A DNA stretch of 64,000 nucleotides, from NCBI GenBank assembly GCA_001782045.1, contig MFNK01000003.1, forward strand, positions 269,049 through 333,048. Direction: 5' to 3'. Position 1 is the stretch's first letter. Each line of letters opens with the position of its first letter. The notes under the pieces are model-generated. The model made no database searches and was not told the origin of the DNA. It saw nothing but the letters and a program-made list of their open reading frames with translations. Shown here one piece after another: positions 8,168-64,000 of this stretch. Position numbers and translations under genes: made by a program. This stretch comes from Candidatus Levybacteria bacterium RIFCSPHIGHO2_01_FULL_36_15b (GTDB lineage Bacteria > Patescibacteriota > Microgenomatia > Levybacterales > UBA12049).

Positions 8168-8275
8168 TAAATTTTTGAAAAAGTATTAAACTTGTGTACA
8201 TATTATCATTTTTTATACATCTATTCTACATTCGTAGGTATTTCACTTTTTAAAAAAACATGATATATTTGCAAA

Positions 8276-9355: not shown

Positions 9356-9380
9356 ACACAACTAACTAAATTCACATAAT

Positions 9381-9761: not shown

Positions 9762-9775
9762 ATTAAAACAATATT

Positions 9776-10435: not shown

Positions 10436-10483
10436 TATTTGAGAAATTTCTTAAAAAGAAATATAATCAAACCTTAATTCCTT

Positions 10484-19308: not shown

Positions 19309-19310
19309 AT

Positions 19311-28041: not shown

Positions 28042-28982
28042 GCGCTTTCAATAATTGTTTTAAGATCTGAATTTATTGGATTAAAACCTAAAATATTTTT
28101 TGCTTTTGTATTGTCTGCAAAGATTTGTGGTGGATCGCCAAATCTTCTATCTTTATATGCAATTTGCAAATCCTTTTCGCTCACCTTTTTTACCATTTCT
28201 AAAACTCCTAGGTTAGAATATCCCTTTCCTGCTCCAAGATTAAAACTATCGCTTGTGTTTTTATCCTTAAGATACGAAAGTGCCTGTAAATGAGCCTCTG
28301 CCAAATCTAAAACGTGGATATAATCCCTAATACAAGTGCCATCAGGTGTTGGATAGTCCTTGCCAAAGAGCGTAAAGGGTTTGTTTTCAAGAATAGCGAT
28401 TATTGCGTTTGGAATAATATGGGTTTCAGCTTCATGGTTTTCCCCCATTGAGCCATCCAAAGCTGCTCCCGCAGCATTAAAATAGCGAAGATTAATGTGT
28501 TTGATATTGTAAATTTTATCGTACCAGAACAAAACTTTCTCAAACATTAACTTAGACTGTCCATAAACACTTTCCGGCTTCTTAGACTCATCCTCGCTCA
28601 CCGGTATTTTCTTCGGTGTACCATATATAGAGCATGTAGATGAAAAAACAAAGTGAGAAGTTTTTCCTTTCATCGCATCAAGCAGGTTAAGACCACCCTG
28701 GATGTTATTCTCAAAATACTTTTCGGGTTTTTCCATTGACTCTCCTGCTAAAGCATAAGCGGCAAAGTGAATTACAGCATCGAATTTGTTTTCGGAAAAT
28801 ATTTTTTTGACAAATTCTTTGTCTAATAGGTTTCCTTCGTAAAGCTTAACTTCCTGTGGAACAACCTCCCTGTGCCCAACTTCTAAACTATCCAAGACAA
28901 TAGGCTCGTCTCCGTTTTCGATGAGTCGCTTTACCATGAAACTTCCGATGTAACCTGCTCCTCCTGTTACTAATATCTTCAT
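28017..28982 (-). CDS. galE: UDP-glucose 4-epimerase
   Basis: MKILVTGGAGYIGSFMVKRL, YGQSKLMFE, RYFNAAGA, GTCIRDYIHVLDLAEAH and FNLGAGKGYS align with GalE. Confidence 0.9.
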   Translation of the reverse strand: MKILVTGGAGYIGSFMVKRLIENGDEPIVLDSLEVGHREVVPQEVKLYEGNLLDKEFVKKIFSENKFDAVIHFAAYALAGESMEKPEKYFENNIQGGLNLLDAMKGKTSHFVFSSTCSIYGTPKKIPVSEDESKKPESVYGQSKLMFEKVLFWYDKIYNIKHINLRYFNAAGAALDGSMGENHEAETHIIPNAIIAILENKPFTLFGKDYPTPDGTCIRDYIHVLDLAEAHLQALSYLKDKNTSDSFNLGAGKGYSNLGVLEMVKKVSEKDLQIAYKDRRFGDPPQIFADNTKAKNILGFNPINSDLKTIIESAWKWHSKI

Positions 28983-34510: not shown

Positions 34511-36151
34511 CTATTTTATTTTCCTAACTTTTGAATATATAAAAAGTGAAAAGATAGAAATCAAAGATAATAGAGATATTATATTCGATATCATTCTTAA
34601 TTTTGTTTCCTCAAATCTTGCAACGGTTTCATAGCTACCCTTATTTAGAAAGAAAGTCATAATTCCTTGATAATCTTTATTTTGGAAATAAACTTCAACA
34701 GGTAAATTATTTGCTGTTATTTTCCAGCCGGGAAAGTACAGCGTATTTTCCCTAAAAAGTGTTTTTGCATCTACTTTAATTTGATATTTGTGATATGTAG
34801 AACTTCTTTCAATCTCCTCAATTTCGGCATACCCATCTATAATTTCTAAATGGGCACTGGGCCGATGCTCCATAAATCTTACCGACCAAATTGGAGCACT
34901 TTCTCCTGTGTCCGTTGTGCTTTCATAAATCCCGGTATAAAAACTTTCGCTTTTTTCCTGATAAGCTTTTGGCTTAGCATAGTTAATGCTAATTAATAAA
35001 ATAATAATGATGGCGGAGATAGAAACCAGTTTGACGTTAATTTTTTTATTTAGTGAGTCTAGAAGTAATGCTCCTAATACAGATGTAGTAAAAAGCACCA
35101 TAGCTAAAAATCTCCAAGGGAATTGAAAATTCTGAAGAATAATTATTTTCGACCAAATAAAATTAGAAACCGGAAGCATAATAAAAATTGAAAATATACT
35201 AAAAGCAATTAAAATAAGTGCGAGATAAAATTTGTACTTATCTTTTTTACCAAAAATTAGTACTAAAGGAGAAAGAAGTAATGAAATCCAGGATAAAGGC
35301 CCAAATTGTAAAGTAAATTGTCCTGTAATTCCATAACTCCACGGTCCATAAATTAATTGTTCAAAATTAACAAACCTATTTATATATGTACCTGCGGTTA
35401 CAATGTCTCTTAATGTATATTTACCCTCTAAAAGTGCCGGTATCCAAAAAAATGCTGATAGCGCAAGACCAAGAATTATTAAAAAGACAAGATTAATAAT
35501 TAATGTTTTTTTGTATTTAGATAGGTAGATTAATAATAAGGAGTAAAGCAATATAAAAGGCATCAGTATAAGGCTTATGGCGTTATGAGACAGGATTAAA
35601 AAGGATAAAGAAAAGCTTCCAAGGATAAAATATTTTAAATCCTGATTTTTATACAACCTGTATATAAAAAAGAGAGTTAATGGAATAAATGGAAATGCAA
35701 GATTTTCTCCTACATCACCTCTTACATAAAGATCAACAAACCTATATGGTGCATACGTAAATAAAACTGCTCCAAACAAAGCGGCGTATTTAGAAGTAAA
35801 TTCTCTAAGCCATAAATACATAAAAGGCAAAGACAAAAACATTCCTAGGCCCATAACGATTTTTGTAGAATTTACAAATGAAAATCCTAGAAAATGGAAA
35901 AGAGAGGCAATATAAGAAGGCAAGGGATATAAAAACATTAAAATTGGATGCCCATATCCCCAATTTAAATTAGAAGCCCATCGTGGAATTAAGCTTCCTT
36001 GTTCAAGGTTTAAATAGAAATTGGCAATTCGTGCAACATGATCCTGTCCATCGTGGGTTATGGGAAAACCCGAAGGAAGTAGGGCAAGGATTGGAAACAA
36101 AGAAAGGAATATTAAAAGTATTTTGAAATGGTGTTTTACTAAGAAATTCAT
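34511..36151 (-). CDS. Family C polytopic membrane protein (HDG...RW...GYGHP motif), putative GT-C-like glycosyltransferase
   Basis: ...GFPITHDGQDHVARIANFYLNLEQGSLIPRWASNLNWGYGHPILMFLYPLPSY...YAPYRFVDLYVRGDVGE.... Paralog of 53762-55429 and 55417-57054. Confidence 0.7.
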   Translation of the reverse strand: MNFLVKHHFKILLIFLSLFPILALLPSGFPITHDGQDHVARIANFYLNLEQGSLIPRWASNLNWGYGHPILMFLYPLPSYIASLFHFLGFSFVNSTKIVMGLGMFLSLPFMYLWLREFTSKYAALFGAVLFTYAPYRFVDLYVRGDVGENLAFPFIPLTLFFIYRLYKNQDLKYFILGSFSLSFLILSHNAISLILMPFILLYSLLLIYLSKYKKTLIINLVFLIILGLALSAFFWIPALLEGKYTLRDIVTAGTYINRFVNFEQLIYGPWSYGITGQFTLQFGPLSWISLLLSPLVLIFGKKDKYKFYLALILIAFSIFSIFIMLPVSNFIWSKIIILQNFQFPWRFLAMVLFTTSVLGALLLDSLNKKINVKLVSISAIIIILLISINYAKPKAYQEKSESFYTGIYESTTDTGESAPIWSVRFMEHRPSAHLEIIDGYAEIEEIERSSTYHKYQIKVDAKTLFRENTLYFPGWKITANNLPVEVYFQNKDYQGIMTFFLNKGSYETVARFEETKLRMISNIISLLSLISIFSLFIYSKVRKIK

Positions 36152-37677
36152 TGTTCAATTCTTGTTTGTATAACTACTCCACTAGGCAATGTGTAAGACT
36201 TGATTATTTTCCCATTTTTTTCTCTATCCCTAAGCCACCATTTTGGCCTATCCTCGTAACCCGGATCTGGCTCTATTATAAAAAAAGAATATGTAGCATC
36301 CTTAGTTTCTTCAGTTGGAAGATATTTATATTTTTTTTCTCCATACCACATAAATAAATATCTATACGTGTAATCAAAAACTGGGGGAGTATATGCTACA
36401 AATTTAAAATCCTTGCCGTTTGCTTCTTTATAGACGTAATCAACCACTGCAAGCTGATTCCTATACACAGATGCATTACCTATAAATTGTGGGCTCATGA
36501 ATGACTTTAGTTGTCGTATTGGATCGAAATTAATAATAAATAATAACGACACGGCTAAAATGATTAAATATTGATATTTTTCTTGCTTTGGAATCATAAA
36601 AAGCGCTAGCGTAAATAATAAAATATAAATAACCGGAAGTCCTACGAGATAATGTGGCCACAAAGCTCTGCCAAACGAAATTGTTCCAATAAAGAAAACA
36701 ATAAGAATAGTAAAGAGTGTGATCATAAATTTTTTAAAAATTTCACTTGATCTTTTATAAAATAAAATTGCAGATATAACTGTGAAAACAATGAATACCC
36801 AAGCAAGTATTTGGTTATTAAAGGTAAGTGAGGAAGCATACATATCAACAAAGGAATTAACCCTATTTTCTACAAGTTGAGTAAAGGTAATTGGGTCTTC
36901 TATCGTATTCTTGCTTGTAATAAATGTTATTAAAGATTTGCTCATCTGAAAACCGTGTTTTATTTCAAAAAAAATTCTTGGAGAAGCAATTAAAATCATT
37001 CCTAATGCAAATGAAAATATTTGTTTGATTTTGATTTTTTTATAAAGAAGGAAAAAGAGTGACAGTATGGTACCAATTGTAAATAGAATACCCCAAAGGA
37101 TTTCTATATCTATATTTAATGCAAGCAAGATCCCAAGAAAAAAGAAATATCTTAAATCTTTTTTTTCAAATTTATAGATTTTATATAAGCAATAAAGCGT
37201 TAACATAACAAATAAAGGCGCTATGTTAGGATTCCAAATCTGAACAGATAATGAAACTAAAACAGGAGAAACGCTAACGAATGCGGCAAGCCCCAAGCCT
37301 AAAAAAATTCCATCTATTTTTTTTCCTAAAATGTAAGAGACAATAATGGATGCAACGCCTACTATAGCCATTATTAAAGCAATTCCAGCGGGATCGCCTC
37401 TAAAAATAATGAAAAATGGAACGAGCATGTAGTACCACCAAGGACCATAAAATACTCCTGGAATTCCGGTCGTTGCGCCTATAAACATTAGATCATGGTT
37501 TACTACAATATTCTGCAATGCGAGCATGTCGCGCCCTACGTCATATGTAAACGCAAAAGAATTAGTTAGTACTCCTTGAAGCCTTAAAAAAGAACCAACA
37601 ATAACTAAAAGAAATAAAATTACCAGTTCTTTTTTAAAAATAATTTTTTTAAAGTCCATAAGCTTAGGTACCTGCAA
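36148..37677 (-). CDS. Family B polytopic membrane glycosyltransferase (ArnT-like; DVGRD variant)
   Basis: ...FAFTYDVGRDMLALQNIVVNHDLMFIGATTGIPGVFYGPWWYY.... 509 aa. Confidence 0.7.
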   Translation of the reverse strand: MQVPKLMDFKKIIFKKELVILFLLVIVGSFLRLQGVLTNSFAFTYDVGRDMLALQNIVVNHDLMFIGATTGIPGVFYGPWWYYMLVPFFIIFRGDPAGIALIMAIVGVASIIVSYILGKKIDGIFLGLGLAAFVSVSPVLVSLSVQIWNPNIAPLFVMLTLYCLYKIYKFEKKDLRYFFFLGILLALNIDIEILWGILFTIGTILSLFFLLYKKIKIKQIFSFALGMILIASPRIFFEIKHGFQMSKSLITFITSKNTIEDPITFTQLVENRVNSFVDMYASSLTFNNQILAWVFIVFTVISAILFYKRSSEIFKKFMITLFTILIVFFIGTISFGRALWPHYLVGLPVIYILLFTLALFMIPKQEKYQYLIILAVSLLFIINFDPIRQLKSFMSPQFIGNASVYRNQLAVVDYVYKEANGKDFKFVAYTPPVFDYTYRYLFMWYGEKKYKYLPTEETKDATYSFFIIEPDPGYEDRPKWWLRDREKNGKIIKSYTLPSGVVIQTRIEQ

Positions 37678-41533: not shown

Positions 41534-42244
41534 TTAATCTGTGAATCTATATTTAAAAAGGTACCAGATTGCTTTGCTTCCGTCCTTTACTGCGCTTATC
41601 TTCTTTCCTTCTTCATATCCCCGCGGTTTAACCTCTATTGGAAGTTCCATAATTTTATATCCTCTTTTTAATAGCTTTGCAGTAATTTCCGGTTCAAACT
41701 CAAACCCCTTAGCATTCATTCTTACACCGTTAAGAGCAACTTTTGGAAAAAGCTTGTAGCAGGTTTCCATATCTGTTATCCATTGACCATACAAGATGCT
41801 TGTAACTAGGCTTAGGAATCTGTTTCCAAAATAATGTAGCAAAAACCTAAAAGTTTTCTCTTCTCCTGCAAGACGAGGGAGTCTTTTTATTCTCGTTCCA
41901 TAAACTACTTTTGATTTTTTTTCTAATATTGGTTTTATTAACTGCCTGATAAACTTTGGATCGTATTCCAAATCGGCATCTTGAATAATTATGTATTCCC
42001 CGGTTGAGTTTTTAATACCTGCAAGAACTGCAGCTCCTTTTCCCTGGTTTTTATCTTGCAATATGGTTTTAAAAGATTTTGATTGAAGTTTATTTAATTT
42101 TTCCCGCGTTTCATCTGTTGAGCCATCATCAACTACTATAATTTCTTTTTCAACTCCAGGAATTTTTTCGTTGATAACTTTTTTTAGAATTTCTTCTACA
42201 GTTTTTCCTTCGTTATAAACAGGAATAATTATAGATAATTTCAT
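41534..42244 (-). CDS. GT2 polyprenol-phosphate-sugar synthase (DPM1/GtrB-like)
   Basis: MKLSIIIPVYNEGKTVEEILKKV...IIVVDDGSTDETREKL, ...DADLEYDP..., ...ITDMETCYKLFPK. 236 aa, no TM. Confidence 0.8.
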   Translation of the reverse strand: MKLSIIIPVYNEGKTVEEILKKVINEKIPGVEKEIIVVDDGSTDETREKLNKLQSKSFKTILQDKNQGKGAAVLAGIKNSTGEYIIIQDADLEYDPKFIRQLIKPILEKKSKVVYGTRIKRLPRLAGEEKTFRFLLHYFGNRFLSLVTSILYGQWITDMETCYKLFPKVALNGVRMNAKGFEFEPEITAKLLKRGYKIMELPIEVKPRGYEEGKKISAVKDGSKAIWYLFKYRFTD

Positions 42245-46537: not shown

Positions 46538-46771
46538 GTGGTGAATAATTTTCTAATTCCGCAAATTCCCTCATTGCTTCTTTTTGCAGCTTTCCTTTGG
46601 ACTTTGCTTTGGAAAGGCATAGCACTATGGAGAGCCGCCAACTTAAAACAAAAGAATTGGTTTATAGCAATTCTTGTTTTAAACACGTTAGGAATTCTAG
46701 AGCTTGTTTACTTGTTTTATTTTGCTAAAAAAAGGCTTACCATACAAGAACTTAAATTTTGGGAAAAATAA
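46538..46771 (+). CDS. Possible small 2-TM membrane protein (77 aa, GTG start), PLDc_N-like pattern
   Basis: Two hydrophobic helices (LLLFAAFLWTLLW / WFIAILVLNTLGILELVYLFYF). Its 3' end overlaps the convergent gene 46697-49051 by 75 nt, which lowers confidence. Confidence 0.3.
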   Translation: MVNNFLIPQIPSLLLFAAFLWTLLWKGIALWRAANLKQKNWFIAILVLNTLGILELVYLFYFAKKRLTIQELKFWEK

Positions 46772-49051
46772 CATTAAAATAAAACCTAGGCCTGCAAGAA
46801 AAAGTCCTAAAACAAAAGATTTAGGAAAATAATTAAACTCTATTAAATGTTCTCCTTTTGGAATAGATACTGCTCGGAACGTAAAATCACTTCGTAATAT
46901 TTCTATTTCCTTCCCATCTACAAATGCCTCCCAACCAGGGTAGAAAGGGTCTGATATGAAAAGCAAGGAATTTCCATCAGTGTTAGTTTTTATCTTTATC
47001 TTATTGGACGTATAGGTAAGTAAATTAAGTTCTCCTTTTTTAAAATTTGGTTCACTTTGGGGATCTTTTTCTAAAACGACTGTTTCTCTCAAGTTTAAAT
47101 CCTTTGTAAACATCTCGTTTAGGATTTCTTGGGAGTTTGTTTTGACAGAATATTTATCAAGAAGAAAGGCCTTAGGATAAGCTTTAATGTTCTCATAGAT
47201 TTGATAAGCTACATCATCATAAGTTAATTTAAAACTATCTGGATAATTCCAAAAAGGATACTCCCAAACAGCATTACCATCTGATTTCTTGTGAATTAAA
47301 TAATTAACTCCCAATAAGTTTAATCCCTCATCTGAATTCAGTCCGTTTTTGGGAAATGCCACGACTGAACGAGCTGCAGGCGTTAAGTCACCATTATTTA
47401 GAGACGATATGAATTCTCCGTACCTTCTATTGTATACAGCGTCATATCCTCCTATTGTCGGTACTTTATAGACTACCGAGGCTTCTGCGCCAAAATTTGC
47501 TAACGCACGATCTTTATTCTGAATTTTAGCCAACTCACTTGAAACTTGTACATTTGGATAAAAATGGCTCTTGAGAGCAAATGGCTGCCATTTAGTCGCA
47601 AATCTAAGCATATCTAATGCTGTAAGAAGAATAAGTATAAATAGAATAATATTTATTCGCCTTGTGAGTTTACTAAAAATTATAAATAAACCGATTGTGC
47701 CTAAAAACGCTACAAAAATAAGCGTAGGTAGGATTAGATTTTGCCTAGCAATAACGGATTTTTCCAAACCTAGTACTTTTAAAAACACTATTAGCCACAG
47801 AGTTATAAAAATTATTGAGATAAGTGGTAAAAAGAGTTTCAATTTTTTTAACACTTTCTCTCTTAAATCCTTTTCCAGTTTTTCATAACCAAAAGCCGCA
47901 AGAACTGCGGCCGAAAAACTAAATAAAACTATTACTCTTGAAGCAGCGCTGGTTGATAATACAGGAATTTTAAGCAATACAACTAAATTTAAAAGTGGTG
48001 TTTGAAAAGAAAGAAATATTGCAATTAATGAGGAGACTAGGAAAAAAAATATTTTTTTGTTTTTTACGTAAAATAGACTATATATAGCAAGGAGTATTGG
48101 AACAAGTCCTAAAAAGGCATTCCATTCGGCATAATGCCCATACCAGTCGTTTCTTGTAACCGGATTGCCAAAGAAGTCTGGAGCAAAAAAAGTTGCAACA
48201 TAGCTCCACGGTATTACTTCAGCTTTTTGAAAGATAGAACTTCTTAAGCTTTGAGTATATGCTTCGACAGATGGCAAAACCTGAGGCAATGTAAGTAAGG
48301 CTCCAAAAGTTAAATAAGCAAAACAGAAAAAGGTTAATTGCTTATCTCTTGTTTCATAAAGCTTAAATAATAAATAAATAACTATAAAAAAAAGAAAATA
48401 TAAACTGATCTGAAAATGTCCGCTGAAAAAAGACAAAGGAAAAGTGAGCGATAGCATAAACAAATACTTAAATTCTCTTTCACTATAATATTTCTCTATA
48501 AAAAAAAGGGCGAGCGGTAAAAAAAGTATTGCATATCCAAGCGTTGCATAACCCATCCATGAGGTAATGAAGCCGCAAAACATAAAAGACACTGCTCCTA
48601 TTAAAGATGATTGATTTCCTAATTTAAGATTTTTTAAAAAAACAAACATAAAAGTTCCTGCAAGAAGCGGCTGGAGTAAAACTAAAATACTCCATGCATC
48701 TACAAAAGGGAGTAAAAGGAATAATAAATTAAACGGTGAAAGTACTGCTGATTGATAATTGGCAAGATGTACCGTCCCGGAAAAACTATAAGGATTCCAG
48801 AGCGGAATTTCACCACTTTTTAATGTATCTATAGTAAACATTTTCCACGGGACAATCTGACCTATAACATCGGGCATAGCATTGTTTTTTACAGGTCCTG
48901 CAAAACCGGGATAAGCATTCCATGGAGAAAAGAAATTAACAAGATAATCTGAAGCAAAAGGAATTTTATTTTGAACAAAATAGGGAGCAGAAAAGATTAG
49001 CCATATAAAAAAAATAAATAGCAGTGGCCAAAATTTATTTAATAATTTCAT
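46697..49051 (-). CDS. YfhO-family-like GT-C membrane glycosyltransferase (784 aa)
   Basis: ...IPLWNPYSFSGTVHLANYQSAVLSPFNLLFL..., with a C-terminal TM LGLFLAGLGFILMLFF. Confidence 0.7.
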   Translation of the reverse strand: MKLLNKFWPLLFIFFIWLIFSAPYFVQNKIPFASDYLVNFFSPWNAYPGFAGPVKNNAMPDVIGQIVPWKMFTIDTLKSGEIPLWNPYSFSGTVHLANYQSAVLSPFNLLFLLLPFVDAWSILVLLQPLLAGTFMFVFLKNLKLGNQSSLIGAVSFMFCGFITSWMGYATLGYAILFLPLALFFIEKYYSEREFKYLFMLSLTFPLSFFSGHFQISLYFLFFIVIYLLFKLYETRDKQLTFFCFAYLTFGALLTLPQVLPSVEAYTQSLRSSIFQKAEVIPWSYVATFFAPDFFGNPVTRNDWYGHYAEWNAFLGLVPILLAIYSLFYVKNKKIFFFLVSSLIAIFLSFQTPLLNLVVLLKIPVLSTSAASRVIVLFSFSAAVLAAFGYEKLEKDLREKVLKKLKLFLPLISIIFITLWLIVFLKVLGLEKSVIARQNLILPTLIFVAFLGTIGLFIIFSKLTRRINIILFILILLTALDMLRFATKWQPFALKSHFYPNVQVSSELAKIQNKDRALANFGAEASVVYKVPTIGGYDAVYNRRYGEFISSLNNGDLTPAARSVVAFPKNGLNSDEGLNLLGVNYLIHKKSDGNAVWEYPFWNYPDSFKLTYDDVAYQIYENIKAYPKAFLLDKYSVKTNSQEILNEMFTKDLNLRETVVLEKDPQSEPNFKKGELNLLTYTSNKIKIKTNTDGNSLLFISDPFYPGWEAFVDGKEIEILRSDFTFRAVSIPKGEHLIEFNYFPKSFVLGLFLAGLGFILMLFFPKFKFLYGKPFFSKIKQVNKL

Positions 49052-49787
49052 TTTTTTTATTTTGAAATTCCCAAAGTTTTGCGTATGTTATAAAAATACT
49101 AAAAGCTTGATAAATACTTTCTATTAGTCCTGTGCCCCTTGCCTTATATCCACCTTGCAATATGTAAGAATTGACAAAAGCAGACAACATAACTCTTGGG
49201 AATCTCCACCAACTCATTTTAGGATGATTAGCCCTTAAACGTAACTCTGCTTCAATACTAGACCAAGCAGCAGTTTTTTCAACCATTGATTCCAAGTTTT
49301 TATGAGTTTTATGTATTAAGAAACCATCAAAAATTGCAGTTTTACCCTCAACTATTGGTGTTTCGTGGATTTTACCCTCCCATCTTTTTAAATTGCCTTT
49401 TCTAAAAAGTCTTAACATCTTTTCTATATAGGGCCATTCATAATTTCCTAAATAAAAGTTTTTCCTTCTTAGATAATAAGCGCTAATGTTGTCATTTTTA
49501 ACGGCTTTGAGAATTTCACCCTTTAAAACTTCATCGCATCTTTCATCAGCATCAATATACAAAACCCAATCAAAACTCGCATGTTTAAGCCCAAAATTGC
49601 GACTCTCTGAAAAGTTAACTGTGGAGTCAATAAATACTTTTGCTCCTAAGCTTTCTGCTATTTTCTCTGTATTATCTGTTGAGCCGTTATCTACTACGAT
49701 AATTTCATCACAAAAAGATAAGTTATCAATGCAATCCCTTATATTATCTATTTCATTCTTTGCAAGAATAATCGCTGAAATTTTCAT
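49035..49787 (-). CDS. Glycosyltransferase family 2 (WaaE/KdtX-like)
   Basis: MKISAIILAKNEIDNIRDCIDNLSFCDEIIVVDNGSTDNTEKIAESLGAKV...IDADER. Confidence 0.8.
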   Translation of the reverse strand: MKISAIILAKNEIDNIRDCIDNLSFCDEIIVVDNGSTDNTEKIAESLGAKVFIDSTVNFSESRNFGLKHASFDWVLYIDADERCDEVLKGEILKAVKNDNISAYYLRRKNFYLGNYEWPYIEKMLRLFRKGNLKRWEGKIHETPIVEGKTAIFDGFLIHKTHKNLESMVEKTAAWSSIEAELRLRANHPKMSWWRFPRVMLSAFVNSYILQGGYKARGTGLIESIYQAFSIFITYAKLWEFQNKKNEIIK

Positions 49788-50692
49788 CTTTTATAACTAC
49801 CCTTACCTAGTATTCGCAAATAATAATCCCGCACGCCAATCTTTTGCCATTTCCTTCCTTCGTACAAAAGCCGTATGCTTTCTTTCAATAATGCCAACTT
49901 GGAGTAAAAAGGTCCATATTTGATACCGAATATCAGTCTATTGCGTGTTATGTAATAATCTTGCAGTTCCGAGCCGGAACCCCCGGTGGCCGCAGCATTT
50001 TTATGCCATAATTTTGCAGCAGGTTCAAATTGAATTTTAAATCCTTTAATTTTTGATCTGATACTAAAATCTGCATCTTCATAGTAGAGAAAATACCTAT
50101 CATCCAAAAGTCCCACATTTTCAAAAACTTCTTTTTTGATCATCATGCAGCAACCTGTAGCTATTTCAGTTTCGCTAGTTTTAGAGTATTTATTGCTATC
50201 TACTTCATCGACTCCAGTATGTTTTCCTAAAATATTTTTCCAGTCTATTTCTCCTCCCGCATACCAAATAATTTTTCCTTTATCTTTTTCGCTGTATCTT
50301 TCTTTGTGATATTCAAAACCTTTAGCAAAATATATTTTAGGAACCACTATTCCTACATCGCTTTTGAAAGCTTTCAGCATATTTGTAATTAAATCCTTAT
50401 CTACTTGTGTATCGTTGTTTAAAATAACGATATAATCAGCACCATTCTGCAGGGAATATTTGATTCCAATGTTGTGCCCTCCACTAAACCCTAAGTTTTG
50501 ATTACTCCTTATAATCTTTAGTTTAAATTCTTTAAGGCTTTCCCGAGAGACAAATGGTTCTACTGAGGCATTATCAATAACTACCACATTAAGCTCTATG
50601 TCTTTTCTATCTAACTTTCTAATACTCTCAAGACATTCAAGGGTAGATTCATTATCATTAAATGTAAGCAGAGAAATAAAAACTTTGCTCAT
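49784..50692 (-). CDS. Glycosyltransferase family 2 (WbbL/rhamnosyltransferase-like subgroup)
   Basis: ...VVIDNASVEP..., NQNLGFSGGHNIG, ILNNDT, YFLYYEDADFSIRSKIKGF. Confidence 0.8.
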   Translation of the reverse strand: MSKVFISLLTFNDNESTLECLESIRKLDRKDIELNVVVIDNASVEPFVSRESLKEFKLKIIRSNQNLGFSGGHNIGIKYSLQNGADYIVILNNDTQVDKDLITNMLKAFKSDVGIVVPKIYFAKGFEYHKERYSEKDKGKIIWYAGGEIDWKNILGKHTGVDEVDSNKYSKTSETEIATGCCMMIKKEVFENVGLLDDRYFLYYEDADFSIRSKIKGFKIQFEPAAKLWHKNAAATGGSGSELQDYYITRNRLIFGIKYGPFYSKLALLKESIRLLYEGRKWQKIGVRDYYLRILGKGSYKR

Positions 50693-51604
50693 CTAGATTT
50701 TTATCTTTCCTCTTATTTTTTCAATATTTTTTTTGAAGGGATTTTTAATATTTTCCAATTTTTCTTTTCTTATCCAGTAATTTATATCCCGCCCATTTCT
50801 TTTGAATTCATCTTCAACTTCGGATAAAAAGTTTTCACCATTGCGCTCTACAAACCCTTTCTTTTCCCAAATAAACGCAAAAACTAAAAAATGATAAAAA
50901 GCCATCAAAAAAGACAACATTAATCCATGAAAACCGTCTTTATATCCTTTTCTCGAAAAAAACCACTTAAGAAAATCGTCAACTGGAAAGCGAATTGCAT
51001 CATAATATGAGAATTTGTATCCGTTCTTGATATATTCTTCTGCCTCATTTGGAGCATATATCATAATTTTATTTACAAACTGAGCAATAGATTCATAGTT
51101 ATGGTGAATTATGTAGCTGGATAATTTTTCCGTGTGTCCTCCTAGCTTAAGATCTTCATGAACATGCTTGCTTTCATATTTTCCTTTTCCTTTCTTGAAT
51201 AACCTCAATTGATAGTCAGGATACCATCCAGTATTTTCGCTTATCCACTTTCCAAACATAAAGTTTTTTCTTGGTATCCAATAGCCAGATGCGTCTTTTG
51301 AGTTCTTAATCACAGATTTTATTTCTTCTGCAAGCTCACTTGACACTTCTTCGTCAGCGTCTAGGCTTAATATCCAATCATTAGATACTTTATCAAAGCC
51401 GAAGTTTTTTTGAATATCTATATTTTGAGGATCGTTTTTTTGACTATAAACTTTGTCCGTATATTTTTTTGCAATTTTAAATGTATTGTCAACCGATTGA
51501 TTATCAACGAAGATAATTTCATCGACAAACTTTAAGGACCTAAGACATCTATCTATATTTTTTTCTTCATTGTATGCGCTTACGACTGCCGAAATTTTTG
51601 GCAT
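50693..51604 (-). CDS. Glycosyltransferase family 2 (WaaE/KdtX-like)
   Basis: MPKISAVVSAYNEEKNIDRCLRSLKFVDEIIFVDNQSVDNTFKIAKKY...LDADEEVS. Confidence 0.8.
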   Translation of the reverse strand: MPKISAVVSAYNEEKNIDRCLRSLKFVDEIIFVDNQSVDNTFKIAKKYTDKVYSQKNDPQNIDIQKNFGFDKVSNDWILSLDADEEVSSELAEEIKSVIKNSKDASGYWIPRKNFMFGKWISENTGWYPDYQLRLFKKGKGKYESKHVHEDLKLGGHTEKLSSYIIHHNYESIAQFVNKIMIYAPNEAEEYIKNGYKFSYYDAIRFPVDDFLKWFFSRKGYKDGFHGLMLSFLMAFYHFLVFAFIWEKKGFVERNGENFLSEVEDEFKRNGRDINYWIRKEKLENIKNPFKKNIEKIRGKIKI

Positions 51605-51607
51605 ATT

Positions 51608-53062
51608 CTAACTCCTTAGGTTTTCTCTTATAAGTAATAAATCGGTTTTTAAACGTTCTTTTCCTATAATATATACTGTAAAAAAGTATATCACAGCTCC
51701 GATTACAATGACCGAAATTAAGCCAAGTAAATTAACCGAAATAAAAGGACTTATTAGGTAAACAGCAATTCCCATAAGAATTGATCCGAAAATTGGATAA
51801 GAAATCGCACTTGCTACATTAAATTTAATTTGTCTTTTTGTTATATAAATAACTAAAACTACTGAAACTGAAATTATCGCAGAAGCAATTGCAACTCCAT
51901 TAAAACCAAATAGTACAATTAGTAGTGGCGTTAAAACCCAAGTTGATAAGGTCCAAAATACCATAAGATATAGGGTGGTTTTAATTTTGCCTATTGCATT
52001 CAAAGCATTCGTAAGCGGCGTAGAGATAGAAGATAAACTTGCGTTTATAGAAAAAAATAAAAGAGACAAAAGCGCAGGCTCCCATTTGCTGTACCTTGGA
52101 ATGAGATCAATAAAATATGGGGATAAAACCACCAGTCCCACAAGCGAGGGAAAAATAAGGAAACTTGCTGCGAATATTGATTTTTCTATTGCTTTTGAAA
52201 GAATCTCTTTTTCATTCTGAAGTCTTGAAAAAGAAGGAAAAGTTATTCTTATAACATTATCCATTACTAATCTTAAAGGCATTAAAGACCACTTTTGCGC
52301 AAACCCAATATAGCCTACTTGTGAAAAAGGAAGTATTTTGCCCAAAAAAGCTATAAACAAATCATCTTTTATTAAGGCGAGCAAGCTATTAAGCTGGAAT
52401 GGAACCCCAAAGGTTAAGAGTTTTTTTGCACTATCTTTTGAAAATCCAATACCAACTCGCCAGGGACTTATTATATATATTGTAATAAGTCCTGAAATTC
52501 CCCGAGCCAGAACTGCAAAACTAAAGCTTGAAATTCCGAATCCATTAATTGCCAAAATCACAACTGTAATATTAAAAAATAAAGCTTCTACTAATTGAGG
52601 CACTACCAGTTTTGTAAAATTTAATTCCCTCTCTAATATTATCGATGGTATGGTTTTAAGGGAAGAAAGAAAAAACGATACGGCAAGAGCTTGGAAGAGA
52701 AATACCCCGTCTTGTCCTAAATTATAAAACCTTCCAATACTGCTCGAGAAAAAAAGTGCTAATGCAACAAGTGATAAAACGAGAATCTGTTGGATGGTGA
52801 AAGTAGTCTTTAAATCATCATCTGTTATATTTTCTTTTTTTTGTATCAGAGCAGCTGCAAGTCCAACATCAGAAAAATACGAAAGAAAAGCAATGATAGC
52901 CGAAACAATAAAAAACACCCCAAAAATTGAAGGAGCCAGAAAAATTGTAAGTAAAAAATTAGCAGAAAAATTTACAACTTGTATAAAAAACGTTCTTGAA
53001 GTAAGTGCTATTATTCCACGAACTGATTTCTGCTTAATTGTGGCTATATCAACTTCTTGCAT
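51608..53062 (-). CDS. Wzx/MurJ-like (MOP superfamily) polysaccharide flippase
   Basis: 484 aa, ~14 TM. ...SVRGIIALTSRTFFIQVVNFSANFLLTIFLAPSIFGVFFIVSAIIAFLSYFSDVGLAAALIQK... is typical of Polysacc_synt proteins. Confidence 0.7.
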   Translation of the reverse strand: MQEVDIATIKQKSVRGIIALTSRTFFIQVVNFSANFLLTIFLAPSIFGVFFIVSAIIAFLSYFSDVGLAAALIQKKENITDDDLKTTFTIQQILVLSLVALALFFSSSIGRFYNLGQDGVFLFQALAVSFFLSSLKTIPSIILERELNFTKLVVPQLVEALFFNITVVILAINGFGISSFSFAVLARGISGLITIYIISPWRVGIGFSKDSAKKLLTFGVPFQLNSLLALIKDDLFIAFLGKILPFSQVGYIGFAQKWSLMPLRLVMDNVIRITFPSFSRLQNEKEILSKAIEKSIFAASFLIFPSLVGLVVLSPYFIDLIPRYSKWEPALLSLLFFSINASLSSISTPLTNALNAIGKIKTTLYLMVFWTLSTWVLTPLLIVLFGFNGVAIASAIISVSVVLVIYITKRQIKFNVASAISYPIFGSILMGIAVYLISPFISVNLLGLISVIVIGAVIYFFTVYIIGKERLKTDLLLIRENLRS

Positions 53063-53765
53063 GATTAAAATTCAAATCTTTCCATAACGTCAAACTTTCC
53101 TTTATTGCCCTAAGAATTACCCGTAAGTTTCCCCCGCTTTGATCTCCATAAATACGTGGATAATGATGAACTTCAACTTCTAGAATTTTTAATTTTGCTT
53201 TTCTTGCCCTGGCTAAAATTTCCGTGGTTATCATAGCTCCTTCGGATGAAAGAGGAAGAATTTTATTTACTGCTTCTTTCTTAAATAGCTTAAATCCACA
53301 ATCTATATCTTTAAACCTAAATCCAAAAAATATATAGTCCCAAATCTTAAGTAGCAACATTAATAAGTGTCTAAATGGATGATCATGTCTTTTTTTCCTG
53401 AAACCTACTACTATGTCAGCGTTGTCTATTTTTTCCATAAATTTTGATATTTCCGAAAAATCAAACTGCCCATCACCGTCATTAAAAACAATATGATTGT
53501 ATCTTGATCTTTTTAACCCGGTTTTTAAAGCAGCTCCATATCCCCTGTTTTCTCCATGAGCAACCGTAATAAGTCTATTGTCTCTTTCTGATATTTTTTT
53601 CATAAGTTCTAGCGTATTGTCAGAAGATCCATCATCCACCATTATAATTTCCCATTTTTTTGCTATTTTATTAGCAACGGGAATTGCCTTATTTATAACT
53701 CTTTCCAAATTTTCTTCCTCGTTCCAAAAGGGGAAAAAGATTGATAATTCCTCAAATCTGCTCAT
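53049..53765 (-). CDS. GT2 polyprenol-phosphate-sugar synthase (DPM1/GtrB-like)
   Basis: LSIFFPFWNEEENLERVI...IIMVDDGSSDNT...HGENRGYGAALKTG, ...DIDCGFKLFKK. Confidence 0.75.
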   Translation of the reverse strand: MSRFEELSIFFPFWNEEENLERVINKAIPVANKIAKKWEIIMVDDGSSDNTLELMKKISERDNRLITVAHGENRGYGAALKTGLKRSRYNHIVFNDGDGQFDFSEISKFMEKIDNADIVVGFRKKRHDHPFRHLLMLLLKIWDYIFFGFRFKDIDCGFKLFKKEAVNKILPLSSEGAMITTEILARARKAKLKILEVEVHHYPRIYGDQSGGNLRVILRAIKESLTLWKDLNFNHARS

Positions 53766-55429
53766 CTGGGTCTTTTTATTATACCAAGAGCAAGGAGCAC
53801 AATGCCAGATATGCTTAAAATATTACCAATTGTCTCAGTTTTTGTTTCTTTATAAGCAAACACTAGATTATTTTTTCCTGGTACAAGTTGTACGCTTGTG
53901 CCCTTAGTAGCTTCTTTTGTACTTACTTCTCTTCCGTTTAGATATGCTCTCCATGCCGGAAAATATGCCAAGGGGACAACAACGTTTGTCTTTTGAACAG
54001 TTCTTAGATTTAATTCTATTCTGTTAGTTTTTTTACTATAGCTTTCCAATCTAATGTTGTTATTTTCTACTGATTTCAAATTTGCTATTTGAGATATGTT
54101 TTTGGGTTTCATAAATTTCTTTGGCATGTATTCGCTAGTTATTTTAGAAATATCCCAATTCAAAGCATTTTTCGACACATAATCAGATGAATCTTTAGCA
54201 AGAATTGTTTGGGGAGAAAAGAATTTAAAATTTAGAAAAACTACTGCGATACAAGCTGAAAAAATAACTATCATATATATTCTAGGATTAATATATTGTT
54301 TTAATAATAAAAATAAACCACCGCTAAGGAAGGACACAGAAAAAGACGCTATCAATAAAAATCTCCAAGGATACTGAATATATTCCATTGCAGGTAAACT
54401 ATCCCAAATAAATTGAGACGCCGAAAGCATTAGAAATACACTTAAGAGTAAAAATGATAAAAACAATGTTACTATTTGAATTGTGTCTTTCTCCAAAACT
54501 TTAAAATTTCTTTTTAGAAGTAAAAAGAGAGTGGCAAGTATAGATAATACGGAAGCTAATATATGATATTTACCTATCATAAAGGAAATACCATCGATGC
54601 ATCCTTTTGCTGAACCGCCAAATCCCCATTGACTTGTCCAAAACTGCGATAAGCATACGAAATGATCTCTAAAATTTGCTCCTCCGCCAACTTGAGACAC
54701 AACATTTGTATAATTCATTTCTAAAATAGCCGGGAGCGAGTAAAATGAAGAAAGTAAAACTCCTAATCCTAAAGCTATAAATAAATTAGCTCTATTTTTG
54801 TTTTTTATAAAAAGAAAAATAGAAAACAGTAAGTAGAAAGGGGTAATTATAAAAGCAGTTAAATTGTGGGAAATAATAACAAGTGCAAAAAAAAGTGCCA
54901 CAAGAAATACATGTTTATATAAATTTTCCTTGTATATTTTATAAAGACCCAAAAAAACAAGAGGAACAAATCCATAGGCATAAAATTCCGCAACGTCTCC
55001 CCTGACGTAAATATTTACTGCATGATATGGGGCATATAAATAAAGCAACCCGGCGACAAGGCCCGCAGGCCTTCCAAAAAACTCTTTAGCCAATAAATAC
55101 ATAGAAATTCCTGCCAGTATAATGCCAATAATCATCATCGCTTTTGTGGCGTCAAGAGGATTTAAGCCCAATAAGTTAATTACTGCTCCAGTATAGTAAG
55201 CAAATGGTGCATAAAAATTAAATATTGGATAGCCGTACCCAAAACCCAAATCTGCGCTCCATCTTACGGGCACCATTCCATCTTTTAGGGCACTTGCCAT
55301 TTCAAAAACCCTAGAGGGTTGCGTATCGTCATGCATTGGGAAAAATCCGTTTAATAAAAGTGGTCTTATTGCAAAAAAAGATAAGATTATTATTAAAAAG
55401 AATGGAAATAGTTTTTTTAATGATTCCAT
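53762..55429 (-). CDS. Family C polytopic membrane protein (HDD...RW...GYGYPIFNFY), putative GT-C-like glycosyltransferase
   Basis: ...FFPMHDDTQPSRVFEMASALKDGMVPVRWSADLGFGYGYPIFNFYAPFAYY...YAPYHAVNIYVRGDVAEF.... Confidence 0.7.
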   Translation of the reverse strand: MESLKKLFPFFLIIILSFFAIRPLLLNGFFPMHDDTQPSRVFEMASALKDGMVPVRWSADLGFGYGYPIFNFYAPFAYYTGAVINLLGLNPLDATKAMMIIGIILAGISMYLLAKEFFGRPAGLVAGLLYLYAPYHAVNIYVRGDVAEFYAYGFVPLVFLGLYKIYKENLYKHVFLVALFFALVIISHNLTAFIITPFYLLFSIFLFIKNKNRANLFIALGLGVLLSSFYSLPAILEMNYTNVVSQVGGGANFRDHFVCLSQFWTSQWGFGGSAKGCIDGISFMIGKYHILASVLSILATLFLLLKRNFKVLEKDTIQIVTLFLSFLLLSVFLMLSASQFIWDSLPAMEYIQYPWRFLLIASFSVSFLSGGLFLLLKQYINPRIYMIVIFSACIAVVFLNFKFFSPQTILAKDSSDYVSKNALNWDISKITSEYMPKKFMKPKNISQIANLKSVENNNIRLESYSKKTNRIELNLRTVQKTNVVVPLAYFPAWRAYLNGREVSTKEATKGTSVQLVPGKNNLVFAYKETKTETIGNILSISGIVLLALGIIKRPR

Positions 55430-57054
55430 ATTTTTTTTCTATATACCCAAAATAAAATCGTAGTTACTATAAATGAAATTATTGAAATAAAATTACTTAA
55501 GCTTCTTAAAGGAGTTTCTTCAAAGCGTAAGCTTACATCGTTACTGCCCTTGTTTAATCTTAACCTTATTACTCCTCTTGGGTTATCATAGTCTATTTTA
55601 GTGCTTATTCCATTAACGTAAGCATTCCAACCTGGATAATATATCAAATTCACCTGAACCGTTCTTTCTTTTTCTAGAAATGTGCTAAAGCTGATTTTAT
55701 TTGCAAGCGTTTGTGATAATATTATTTTTTCATTTCCGTCTAAAATTTCTACTTTCTCGCTCGCCTGTTGTCTAGGCATTGTTTTTACCCATAAGGGCAT
55801 TAGCTCATTTGAAGATGTAGTAGTCGCTTGATTTGTAGTATAAAATGAGTCTTCCCTTACTATAATAGATTGCGGCTTTGCATGTGGAATAACCAATACA
55901 AATGCAAAGATTGCAAGAAATATAGACATTGCAATAAATCTTTTATCAATTGTTGTCAAATATCCAGCGAGCAGGCTTATCAAGAAAGTAATTACTGCAA
56001 GAAGTGTCCAAGGATAATTTATTTCAGAAATCAGTGGCACGTTAGACCATATAACTGAAGAGAAGGAAAATAAAAGTATAGAAATAGCTAAAGTCGATAA
56101 AATTAAATAAATTGCAATTCGCGAGTCTCTGCTATTGAATCTGAAAAGAACTAAGAAAAAAACCGTGATAAAAACTAAAATATAGGGTAGTCCTATTTGA
56201 TAACCGAAGCCGTTAATATCGGTTGGCGTACCATATCCCCACTTTGGAGTAATTAAATCCGAAAGGCTTACAAAATACTGGCTTCTGTCTGCAATTGGAA
56301 CCTTAGAAAGTAATATTAAATTTTTTTCAGCAAAAGCCGGTATCCAGAAAAATGCGGCAAGGCAAAGGGAAAGAACAATAGAAAATATAAGATTTAATAA
56401 AAATGAAATATTTTTTTTGAAAATTGCAAAAAACGAAACTAACAATAATACTAACCCAAAAAGAACTGCCATAATGTTATGCATTAGCATTAATAAACAG
56501 TAAAGAATTCCAAATATAAGAATGTCTGGAATAGAATTTGGTTTTTCATAAATTTTCTTTATCCAAAGCAGAATGAGCGGAAAAAGAACAAATGACAAAG
56601 ACTCACCAAGTGAGCCTCTAACATATAAATCCACTATGTGATATGGAATATATATATAAAGAGTTGCGCATATAAACCCCGCTAAGTTATTTTTCCAAAG
56701 ATTTTTTGCCAAAAAAAACATTGAAAGAAACGATAAAACTACACTTAATGCAAAGAGAATTTTTATACTTGTAATAAATCCAAGCTTAAGAAAAACAAAA
56801 ACCAGTCCTAAATAATAAGGAAGTGGATATGTAAAGTTAAAAAGTGGATAACCGTATTGAAAATTTAGATAAGTACTATAACGCGCCGGAATCTCGAACG
56901 ACTTAAATTCCCTATACATTTCTGAAAGCCTTACAACTGCCCACTCTCCATCGTGTGTGGGAAAATAACCAGATTTAAAATAAGGCAGTATAAGAGGCAG
57001 ACTTATTACAAAGGATATTAGTAAAATTACAACAATATTTTTGAATTGCTTCAT
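55417..57054 (-). CDS. Family C polytopic membrane protein, tandem paralog
   Basis: ...YFPTHDGEWAVVRLSEMYREFKSFEIPARYSTYLNFQYGYPLFNFTYPLPYY...YIPYHIVDLYVRGSLGES.... Confidence 0.7.
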   Translation of the reverse strand: MKQFKNIVVILLISFVISLPLILPYFKSGYFPTHDGEWAVVRLSEMYREFKSFEIPARYSTYLNFQYGYPLFNFTYPLPYYLGLVFVFLKLGFITSIKILFALSVVLSFLSMFFLAKNLWKNNLAGFICATLYIYIPYHIVDLYVRGSLGESLSFVLFPLILLWIKKIYEKPNSIPDILIFGILYCLLMLMHNIMAVLFGLVLLLVSFFAIFKKNISFLLNLIFSIVLSLCLAAFFWIPAFAEKNLILLSKVPIADRSQYFVSLSDLITPKWGYGTPTDINGFGYQIGLPYILVFITVFFLVLFRFNSRDSRIAIYLILSTLAISILLFSFSSVIWSNVPLISEINYPWTLLAVITFLISLLAGYLTTIDKRFIAMSIFLAIFAFVLVIPHAKPQSIIVREDSFYTTNQATTTSSNELMPLWVKTMPRQQASEKVEILDGNEKIILSQTLANKISFSTFLEKERTVQVNLIYYPGWNAYVNGISTKIDYDNPRGVIRLRLNKGSNDVSLRFEETPLRSLSNFISIISFIVTTILFWVYRKKIWNH

Positions 57055-62724: not shown

Positions 62725-64000
62725 TTAATTTGATATTACCTTGTAAACCCTATAAAACGAGCCCGTATTTCCCTGCTCCACTTGAAAAATTAATTCTAAT
62801 GGAAATTCAGGAGGAATTGGATCATGCTCTTTTTGATAAAAAACATAGTAAGTAGGCATTTTTTTAGCCCTATCTAAAACTTCTTTGGAAATATTATCCA
62901 CTGGCCAGTATCCTTTTATAGTAATATTTTTATTATCTACTAGGTACATTTCAAGAGCAAAAGGCATTAAGCCAAAGGTGCCCTCTGTTGCAATATAAAT
63001 TTTTTCTTTCTTAGCTGCTTTGGAAAAATAATCAATACTTTCTTTCACTCCCCAACCCGCTGCCCAGCTATTAATATATTGACTATTGTCCGCTTTGGCA
63101 ATTCTTGAATTGATAGGGTCATATATAAATTGAATCGAAATAAAAGCCGGAAAGACAAGAAAAAGAATTAATAAGGCTAAGGTTAAATATTGTTTGCTTG
63201 TTTTGTATTTTTTAAATAAAAACTCAATTAGGTAATTTAATCCCAAAGCAGCAAGCGGAATTAGCATTATGCTCATAAAAAATATAAACCGCGGAAAAAT
63301 TACTTTTCCAAAAAGCGCAAGCGCAATAAAAGGAAGTAAAAAATAGATTATGAGTATTAATTTTTCCTTTGCAAAATCCCTAAAATTAATTAAAGAAATA
63401 ATAATTAATACAATGTAGGGAATTTTTAAATATTCGTACAGCCAACTCCAAAGACCATTTAGATTTCCGACGAAAAAGGTAAAAGGATGCTGTAACCATT
63501 CCGAAATCGGATAGACAAAAACAGCATTCTTTGCACTAATCATCTGAAAAAGAGGAGAAAGTCTTAGTACGTTGTAAAGACCATAAGCAATTGCTACGGA
63601 AAAAGCAGATAACAGAGCAAATCGCAATATCTTTTCTTTCCACTTTTTGTCCTTAAAATTAAAAAACAATAAAAAGAACGGTAGGAGATAAATACTAAAA
63701 AAATTTGCGGTTTTTGTTAAAATTCCTCCTCCGATTACAAATCCAAGAGTATAAGCAATTTCAAGTTTTGGCGTCCGTAGTAATAGAATCGATAAATATA
63801 AAGACCAGACAAAAAATGCTGCAACCATGCTATCGTATAGAGCCATTCTGTCTAAAACCACCGCAAGAGGAAAAAATATATAAAGCAAAGATGAGATAAA
63901 TGCAACTTTTTTGTTTTTGAAGAGCTCTAACGTAAGAAACCACAACCCAGCAATTGTAAAAAAGCCTGAAGCCACAGAAACAAGTCTTCCGGCAATTAAA
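62725..64000 (-). CDS. Partial (N-terminus off the right edge) GT39/ArnT-like membrane glycosyltransferase
   Basis: The frame is open to the window end. Translation upstream of the listed GTG start reads ...LIAGRLVSVASGFFTIAGLWFLTLELF..., so the true N-terminus lies beyond 64000. The pattern ...LAVVLDRMALYDSM...GGGILTKTANFF resembles the ArnT/PMT mid-region. Confidence 0.6.
   Translation of the reverse strand, partial: LIAGRLVSVASGFFTIAGLWFLTLELFKNKKVAFISSLLYIFFPLAVVLDRMALYDSMVAAFFVWSLYLSILLLRTPKLEIAYTLGFVIGGGILTKTANFFSIYLLPFFLLFFNFKDKKWKEKILRFALLSAFSVAIAYGLYNVLRLSPLFQMISAKNAVFVYPISEWLQHPFTFFVGNLNGLWSWLYEYLKIPYIVLIIISLINFRDFAKEKLILIIYFLLPFIALALFGKVIFPRFIFFMSIMLIPLAALGLNYLIEFLFKKYKTSKQYLTLALLILFLVFPAFISIQFIYDPINSRIAKADNSQYINSWAAGWGVKESIDYFSKAAKKEKIYIATEGTFGLMPFALEMYLVDNKNITIKGYWPVDNISKEVLDRAKKMPTYYVFYQKEHDPIPPEFPLELIFQVEQGNTGSFYRVYKVISN

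Follow-up and report, generated by a model that had tools for sequence, protein, structure and literature searches.

The DNA analysed here, referred to as the window, comprises 64,000 nucleotides (nt) of contig MFNK01000003.1 (positions 269,049 to 333,048, forward strand) of Candidatus Levybacteria bacterium RIFCSPHIGHO2_01_FULL_36_15b. It contains three genes, here called famC, that code for large membrane proteins belonging to a catalogued family of the GT-C glycosyltransferases. Two of them lie in tandem, immediately upstream of the genes for a putative polyprenol-phosphate-sugar synthase and a flippase of the Wzx type. We found the three open reading frames (ORFs) all on the minus strand:

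53762..55429, minus strand, famC copy 1, 555 amino acids (aa); a GT-C protein of the PF10131 family and member of the best-conserved ortholog group
55417..57054, minus strand, famC copy 2, 545 aa; tandem paralog on the upstream side of copy 1, with which it has a 13-nt overlap
34511..36151, minus strand, famC copy 3, 546 aa; the remaining paralog, which belongs to the second operon of the surrounding glycan island

The copies are pairwise 28–31% identical over some 530 aa (BLASTP, E 5e-54 to 3e-67), far beyond chance, with copy 2 and copy 1 at 31% (E 3.6e-66). They are true paralogs, as had been proposed from the sequence alone in an earlier reading of this DNA (the original prediction), which described three related ORFs of 545–555 aa. 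The copy 1 protein is already present at NCBI as a 100% identical hypothetical protein from a metagenome-assembled genome (MAG) of Candidatus Levybacteria (RIFCSPLOWO2_01_FULL_36...).

The proteins share a signature made up of HD(D/G) at residues 33–35, 8–9 residues past the first transmembrane (TM) helix, R-[W/Y] at residues 56–57, GYG(Y/H)P at approximately residues 64–68, and Y-x-P-Y-(H/R)-x-V-(D/N)-x-Y-V-R-G at residues 132–144. In copy 1 these elements are located as follows:

55160..55354, minus strand, first extracytoplasmic loop (EL1, residues 26–90), with HDD33-35, R40, R56-W57 and GYGYP64-68; putative catalytic and donor-binding loop
54986..55042, minus strand, the motif Y-x-Y-A-P-Y-H-x-V-x-x-Y-V-R-G-D-x-x-E (residues 130–148), located where TM3 ends on the outer side and TM4 begins

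Conservation was measured over 158 sequences from 80 species representatives, divided into three paralog groups. Six residues (D34, G66, K96, R143, G144 and H188) were 100% conserved in every group, followed by R56 and P233 (at least 98% in each), R40, P68 and E148 (at least 94%) and N189 (at least 92%). Since these residues are invariant or nearly so across three paralog groups, the signature is real and strong selection acts on it. Some details of the signature as first described had to be relaxed. Its motifs are present in the three copies, but the R-W pair is actually R-[W/F/Y], being R-Y in the copy at 55417; the stretch given as F-N-F-Y is only partly conserved and reads PILMFL in the copy at 34511; and of the HDG/HDD triplet it is D34 that is invariant, position 33 being either H or D across the 158 sequences, so that the motif is HD or DD.

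AlphaFold2 (AF2) models of copy 1 (predicted local distance difference test, pLDDT, 90.1; predicted template modelling score, pTM, 0.91) and copy 2 (pLDDT 83.6, pTM 0.88) contain 11 core TM helices and one C-terminal TM helix, i.e., 12 rather than the 13 or so that had been counted at first. Both models open with TM1 and a 65-residue outer loop that has the HD motif at its start and includes two short helices. Ten TM helices come after this loop, with a long flexible loop following TM7, and the chain ends in an extracytoplasmic region that closes in a beta-sandwich, and then the last TM helix. The corresponding part of copy 1 is:

53852..54055, minus strand, extracytoplasmic beta-sandwich (residues 459–526), followed by the C-terminal TM helix (residues 530–552); the YfhO paralogs of the window have a homologous C-terminal region

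The positive-inside rule fits a topology with the N-terminus in the cytoplasm and, read together with the DSSP strings of the models, this topology puts all of the conserved polar residues on the outer face. The conserved acidic and basic loop residues are predicted to adjoin TM1 and TM3/4 on that face, where the active sites of GT-C enzymes lie. The suggestion that they resemble a GT-C catalytic site is thus borne out in the models, with an invariant Asp (D34) after TM1. When the models were compared with solved structures, the strongest matches were all GT-C transferases, in line with what had been anticipated. For copy 1 the match figures were 21.5 for Pmt4, 20.7 for Pmt2, 20.5 for STT3B and 18.8 for PglB, with AftD (17.3), AglB (17.2), ArnT (16.5) and AftA (16.0) further down; for copy 2 they were 22.2 for AglB, 20.5 for AftA, 20.3 for Pmt4 and 20.2 for AftD. 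Foldseek at E<=1e-3 matched solely STT3, PglB, AglB, AftD and Pmt4, and its TM-scores against STT3/PglB/AglB were low (0.4–0.48). The famC proteins combine the features of the GT-C superfamily, i.e., a TM core within the range of 7–13 helices, a conserved acidic residue after TM1 and likeness to solved GT-C enzymes, and the models indicate that they are GT-C-fold membrane sugar transferases. A match to a transporter or to another non-glycosyltransferase family had been named as the finding that would speak against this. No such profile or fold appeared above the GT-C matches, and we rejected that identity.

The family is also recognizable at the level of profiles. The Pfam model PF10131 (PTPS_related) scored 51.6 bits with copy 1, 43.2 with copy 3 and 26.0 with copy 2, against a gathering threshold of 26.4 bits, so that copy 2 falls 0.4 bits short. 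The match extends over residues ~70–406 of the proteins and positions 1–312/315 of the 621 in the model, whose C-terminal half stays unmatched. TM1 and the loop with the HD/DD motif lie outside the matched region; in copy 1, EL1 is left uncovered N-terminal of residue 70. All 56 relatives in our alignment matched PF10131 at E<=1e-3, whereas PMT_2 was matched by 25, YfhO by 17 and STT3 by three of the 56. A 2021 study of TMTC proteins counts PTPS_related as one of 19 Pfam families in the GT-C clan CL0111 and describes its function as unknown (PMC7801869). Given the PF10131 matches of all three copies and this listing, the family is already catalogued and assigned to GT-C, and the idea that it might be an undescribed GT-C subfamily does not hold; the famC proteins are ordinary in kind. 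Their close relatives carry database names taken from PTPS_related, a misnomer that wrongly points to pterin metabolism. The family is very large, with 23,869 clusters at 50% identity in a full HMMER scan at E<=1e-3 and 6,787 at E<=1e-30. Our literature search on PF10131/PTPS_related returned one cataloguing mention and two transcriptome tables of C. acetobutylicum (CA_C2581 and CA_C2526), and no functional study. Profile searches of the PDB with alignments of 3 and 56 sequences gave no match save one noise hit (E 1.3), so that no solved structure of the family appears detectable by sequence. A scan of the three proteins with NCBIfam gave no meaningful match.

It had also been stated that these proteins could not be matched to YfhO or PMT, and this proved too strong. 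In profile–profile alignment (hhalign) the famC proteins matched the three YfhO paralogs of the window with 97.2% probability (E 3.7e-11, 389 columns, residues 1–413), HDD33-35 aligning with a one-residue offset to the invariant Asp that follows TM1 in those paralogs. The PMT_2-type paralogs of the window were matched with 96.5% probability over TM2–TM6. The hidden Markov model (HMM) of the famC family furthermore matched the YfhO paralogs in their C-terminal domain (i-E 2.8e-10). Because of the match over the TM core and the shared C-terminal domain, the famC family appears to be a compact YfhO relative with the same architecture in shortened form. The Pfam YfhO model itself (PF09586) gave no match at E<=0.1 with the three famC proteins of the window. 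Judged by the models of PMT, PMT_2, YfhO and STT3 themselves, famC belongs to none of these families. Membership of the PMT/ArnT families was rejected, as PMT_2 (PF13231) stayed below its cutoff of 26.1 bits (17.3 and 20.5 bits for two copies, none for the third) and PMT (PF02366) matched none of the three. We also rejected membership of the oligosaccharyltransferases (OSTs), since a search of the three proteins for the WWDxG motif (regular expression W[WY]DxG) found no match and the C-terminal domain is a small beta-sandwich.

The operon of the tandem pair starts beyond 63975 and is read towards lower coordinates as far as 46697, neighbouring genes overlapping by 4–14 nt. Its order is PMT_2, YfhO, PMT_2, PMT_2, famC copy 2, famC copy 1, GT2 (glycosyltransferase family 2), Wzx-type MOP flippase, three GT2s and YfhO. 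The first of these genes in view is a PMT_2-type ORF at 62725-63975 (minus strand). It starts with GTG right at the edge of the window, and Pfam matches it only from model position 31 onwards; for these reasons it probably extends past the window, and the start of the operon is out of view. The genes that follow copy 1 are:

53049..53765, minus strand, soluble GT2 (Pfam) of 238 aa without TM helices, of the polyprenol-phosphate-sugar synthase type (ArnC/GtrB/DPM1/PpgS-like); 4-nt overlap with copy 1
51608..53062, minus strand, Wzx-type MOP flippase, 484 aa, Pfam Polysacc_synt_3 (E 1e-47); 14-nt overlap with the GT2
49035..51604, minus strand, three more GT2 genes of 303, 302 and 250 aa (Pfam), part of the conserved module
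46697..49051, minus strand, YfhO-family GT-C of 784 aa (Pfam YfhO, E 2e-34); it ends this first operon, is followed by a 220-nt gap and is frequently, though not invariably, kept at this place

The best match of the GT2 at 53049-53765 in the PDB was ArnC (E 6e-23) over residues 5–217, the whole catalytic domain, and GtrB and Dol-P-Man synthase were matched as well. In NCBIfam this GT2 matched ArnC, AglJ, PpgS and Dol-P-hexose transferase over the full length, without reaching the equivalog cutoff of any of them. It presumably makes the lipid-linked donor. The flippase at 51608-53062 matched the MOP flippase, O-glycosylation flippase and TuaB models of NCBIfam, all below cutoffs. The neighbourhood announced in the original prediction, a polyprenol-phosphate-sugar synthase next to the pair and a flippase adjoining it, is therefore recognizable by homology, and it is only the orientation that was mistaken: as transcription of all of the genes runs towards lower coordinates, the famC pair lies immediately upstream of the synthase and flippase and not downstream. 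There is no small membrane gene of the GtrA or GacJ type in the operon, since the packing and overlaps of the genes leave no room for it.

Copy 3 belongs to another operon, running from 46476 down to 21204, with PMT_2-like genes, a second DPM-like GT2, a second MOP flippase, GT4s and methyltransferases:

41534-42244, minus strand, second soluble GT2, DPM1/AglJ-like, 236 aa, 116 bits with the AglJ model (below cutoff)

This GT2 lies four genes (~5.4 kb) upstream of copy 3 and could supply a lipid-linked donor to the GT-C proteins of the second operon; the genes in between code for a methyltransferase and three PMT_2-type proteins.

The same arrangement is found in many related genomes. With one genome scanned per species we obtained 561 relatives, and synteny was counted in the best 80 loci (annotated with phmmer). 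A tandem famC pair, usually a copy 2-like gene followed by a copy 1-like gene, was found in 72 of the 80, a DPM-like GT2 directly after the copy 1 ortholog in 74, a MOP flippase after this GT2 in 71 and more GT2s after the flippase in 64. In 19/80 loci a second DPM-like GT2 was located just upstream of the pair, and a YfhO gene was present in 41/80, a count limited by locus length. Orthologs of copy 3 were found ~5.6 kb downstream of the pair in about nine related loci. Most of the 80 loci are titled Patescibacteria, Levyibacteriota or Gottesmanbacteria, and many others "uncultured Gammaproteobacteria," with one locus each titled Pacearchaeota (L020), Saccharimonadales and Lysobacterales. As the MAGs carrying these odd titles (within L004–L079) share the synteny of the Levybacteria-type module, the Gammaproteobacteria, Pacearchaeota, Saccharimonadales and Lysobacterales names look like taxonomic mislabels. 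We also found natural fusions, P0121 (1116 aa) and P0122 (1093 aa), with two famC units in a single chain, the latter recurring with its length unchanged in three independent sources (NCBI, ENA and Logan assemblies). Such a fusion is topologically consistent because the last TM helix leads the chain back into the cytoplasm ahead of the following TM1. Longer gene calls with several units (P0215, 1670 aa, and P0153, 3329 aa) are either real or merges produced by gene calling. A literature search on GT-C glycosyltransferases of the Candidate Phyla Radiation (CPR) found nothing, and both the conserved famC-famC-GT2-Wzx module of Microgenomates-type CPR bacteria and the signature in the loop outside the Pfam model appear to be undescribed.

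By analogy with better studied systems, the famC proteins are probably outer-face transferases of a multi-component glycosylation system of the Gac/Gtr type that uses polyprenol-phosphate sugars; a GT-A/GT2 synthase is encoded together with the GT-C proteins, as judged by homology only. In such a system the soluble GT2 downstream would load polyprenol phosphate with a sugar at the cytoplasmic face, the adjacent Wzx-type MOP flippase would move the lipid-linked sugar to the outer face, and the famC enzymes would pass it there to an acceptor at the cell surface, which might be a wall or membrane glycopolymer made by the island or Ser/Thr-rich surface proteins. We infer that D34 could be the catalytic base or a metal ligand, and that R40, R56, K96, R143, E148, H188 and N189 may bind the phosphate and the sugar. 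The two tandem copies, both with every signature residue, would most likely either transfer different residues or form different linkages, or else work as a heterodimer.

Several observations weigh against this proposal. Only the first half of the PF10131 model is matched, with copy 2 slightly under the threshold, and the operon has no GtrA-type or GacJ-type small membrane protein. As we found no biochemically tested member of PF10131 in the literature, the proposed activity, donor and acceptor rest on extrapolation from other families of GT-C enzymes. About 12 of the 80 loci have a single famC, most of them at contig ends, although three (L011, L015 and L028) are genuinely single. The gene content of the module is a further difficulty. 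Classical Wzx proteins flip diphosphate-linked oligosaccharides, and the presence of a Wzx-like flippase and three extra GT2s means that a pathway of en bloc transfer fits these genes equally well. There, a glycan would be started on polyprenol phosphate by the DPM1/AglJ-like GT2, extended by the three other GT2s and exported by Wzx, and famC would act as oligosaccharyltransferase, ligase or polymerase and pass the complete glycan to an acceptor, either a protein or the wall, in a CPR version of the archaeal Agl pathway. The conserved module (famC-famC-GT2-MOP followed by two or three GT2s) has exactly the parts required, both of the window's DPM-like GT2s give scores with the AglJ model (57 and 116 bits, under its cutoff), the flippase matches Wzx and O-glycosylation flippase models in NCBIfam, some of the structural matches are OST-like, and no initiating phosphoglycosyl transferase of the WecA/WbaP type is found among the annotated ORFs of the window. 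However, the famC proteins have neither the WWDxG motif nor a C-terminal domain of the OST type, the STT3 model of Pfam is touched by only three of the 56 relatives, the nearest profile families (YfhO and PMT_2) use monosaccharide donors, and the second DPM-like GT2 that precedes the pair in some loci (19/80) fits better with one synthase per transferase. We regard transfer en bloc as unlikely, though it is the main rival.

The tandem arrangement has a bearing on how the enzymes would work. The two copies might form an obligate heterodimer acting as a protein O-glycosyltransferase in the manner of yeast Pmt1-Pmt2, which would refine the proposal of a Gac/Gtr-type system rather than exclude it. 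The order copy 2–copy 1 is kept in most loci, every signature residue is retained in both copies, the single-chain fusions of two units are consistent in topology, and streptococcal GT-C enzymes of the YfhO type glycosylate Ser/Thr-rich proteins. Nevertheless, the lineages with one famC beside the GT2 and flippase (L011, L015 and L028) indicate that a heterodimer is not obligatory everywhere, the Pfam scores for PMT and PMT_2 are below threshold, and no candidate acceptor protein has been identified. A heterodimer is plausible in view of the conserved pair and the fusions, but we give the obligate form only a small chance. Smaller again is the chance we would give to a combination of these ideas, in which the module is a self-contained Agl-like pathway and a PF10131 heterodimer, fused to a single chain in some lineages, moves an oligosaccharide linked to polyprenol monophosphate en bloc to acceptors in the S-layer, pilins or wall. 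If transfer en bloc in an Agl-like pathway were true, it would represent a new class of bacterial oligosaccharyltransferase devoid of WWDxG and characteristic of the envelopes of Microgenomates (CPR). That famC has no enzymatic role at all, being a transporter, a scaffold or a degenerate GT-C-like protein, or that one partner of the pair is catalytically dead, is very improbable, considering the invariant Asp after TM1, the Arg, Glu, His and Asn on the outer face that are invariant or nearly so in the three paralog groups, the active transferases that are the strongest structural matches, and the tight co-conservation of the famC genes with a lipid-sugar synthase. A Gac/Gtr-type system thus remains the reading we prefer, with D34, R40, R56, K96, R143, E148, H188 and N189 as the candidate active-site set for testing.

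The famC genes are embedded in a larger context. Nearly the whole window (21204-63975, together with 2813-4993 and 14826-17048) is one island of glycan biosynthesis with at least 15 GT-C-like genes: the three famC, five PMT_2-like, three YfhO, a separate trio and a pair. The trio of paralogs (36148-37677, 32859-34508 and 28997-30550) includes a first member with a weak match to PMT_2 and two others with no Pfam match. The pair (2813-4993 and 14826-17048, E 1e-140 to each other) has no Pfam match and matches the famC HMM weakly on the TM core. The minus-strand gene at 30547-32859 codes for a 770-aa protein in which an N-terminal GT2 domain is fused to a GT-C membrane domain of the PMT_2 type. 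Its GT2 domain is paralogous (E 1e-48) to the stand-alone GT2 at 50693-51604 of the conserved famC module, and this fusion suggests that GT2s of that type may also work with a GT-C partner. Genes for sugar-nucleotide metabolism are found in the lower-numbered half of the window (their strand is not stated):

8276-9355, strand not stated, Gmd, above the NCBIfam cutoff
7316-8167, strand not stated, RmlD, above the NCBIfam cutoff
28017-28982, strand not stated, GalE, above the NCBIfam cutoff
17265-18194, strand not stated, Fcl-like reductase, a sugar-nucleotide gene
19311-20417, strand not stated, sugar aminotransferase, adjoining a formyltransferase (18586-19308)
10484-11710, strand not stated, sugar C-methyltransferase, a sugar-nucleotide gene

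The aminotransferase and the formyltransferase may make a formamido sugar, and the sugar-nucleotide genes as a whole (7316-11710, 17265-20417 and 28017-28982) hint that the glycan contains deoxy, amino or formylated sugars. Almost nothing is known of the envelopes of CPR bacteria, which are uncultivated; the number of GT-C genes in the island indicates an elaborate extracytoplasmic assembly of glycans. For the PF10131 family the analysis provides candidate residues, conserved partners (an ArnC/GtrB-like GT2 and a Wzx-type flippase) and a tandem or fused arrangement that can guide its first biochemistry. It would extend a known paradigm of multi-component glycosylation to another GT-C family, which will not greatly surprise the specialist.

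Compared with known systems, the famC proteins of Levybacteria and Gottesmanbacteria share PF10131 with all of the relatives aligned and form within it a compact subgroup of 545–570 aa, with a beta-sandwich and a terminal TM helix of their own. They differ from PMT (GT39), ArnT (GT83) and PMT_2 enzymes in having no MIR domains and in their signature, HD/DD...R...GYGYP...YVRG, unlike the DE loop motif that characterizes PMT and ArnT. One characterised GT39 protein glycosyltransferase, Cbes_1864 of C. bescii, has a similar 556 aa (PMC6151902) and was considered as a candidate member of the famC family. From STT3/PglB/AglB (GT66) they are set apart by the lack of WWDxG and of the OST periplasmic domain, and by the low TM-scores given above.

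By profile–profile comparison the closest family is YfhO (PF09586), which includes YfhO of B. subtilis and S. aureus, Listeria Lmo1079 and the streptococcal PgtC2 and PgfM1/PgfM2. YfhO enzymes are likewise partnered by a GT2 polyprenol-phosphate-sugar synthase and a flippase, and in S. mutans two paralogs are found in one operon. The precedents are CsbB/GtcA/YfhO in the glycosylation of teichoic acid (PMC8035078) and, for proteins, PgfS with two GT-Cs of the YfhO type, PgfM1 and PgfM2; both these and the GtrB/PgtC2 system act on Ser/Thr-rich proteins in streptococci (bioRxiv 10.1101/2024.05.05.592596). However, YfhO proteins have 750–850 aa against the ~550 aa of famC, and their systems use a membrane-anchored CsbB and a GtrA-type flippase in contrast to the soluble GT2 and Wzx-type flippase found here. 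In this respect the famC module is like the system of S. pyogenes, in which GacI is a soluble GT-A, GacK a Wzx-type flippase and GacL the GT-C (review PMC8035078), and a further precedent is a MATE-family flippase acting on a polyprenol-phosphate pentose, alongside the new GT-C family GT136 (PMC11127046). The differences from Gac are that GacL is of the PMT_2 type and that the famC module has no GacJ-like protein, and has two GT-C paralogs and three extra GT2s.

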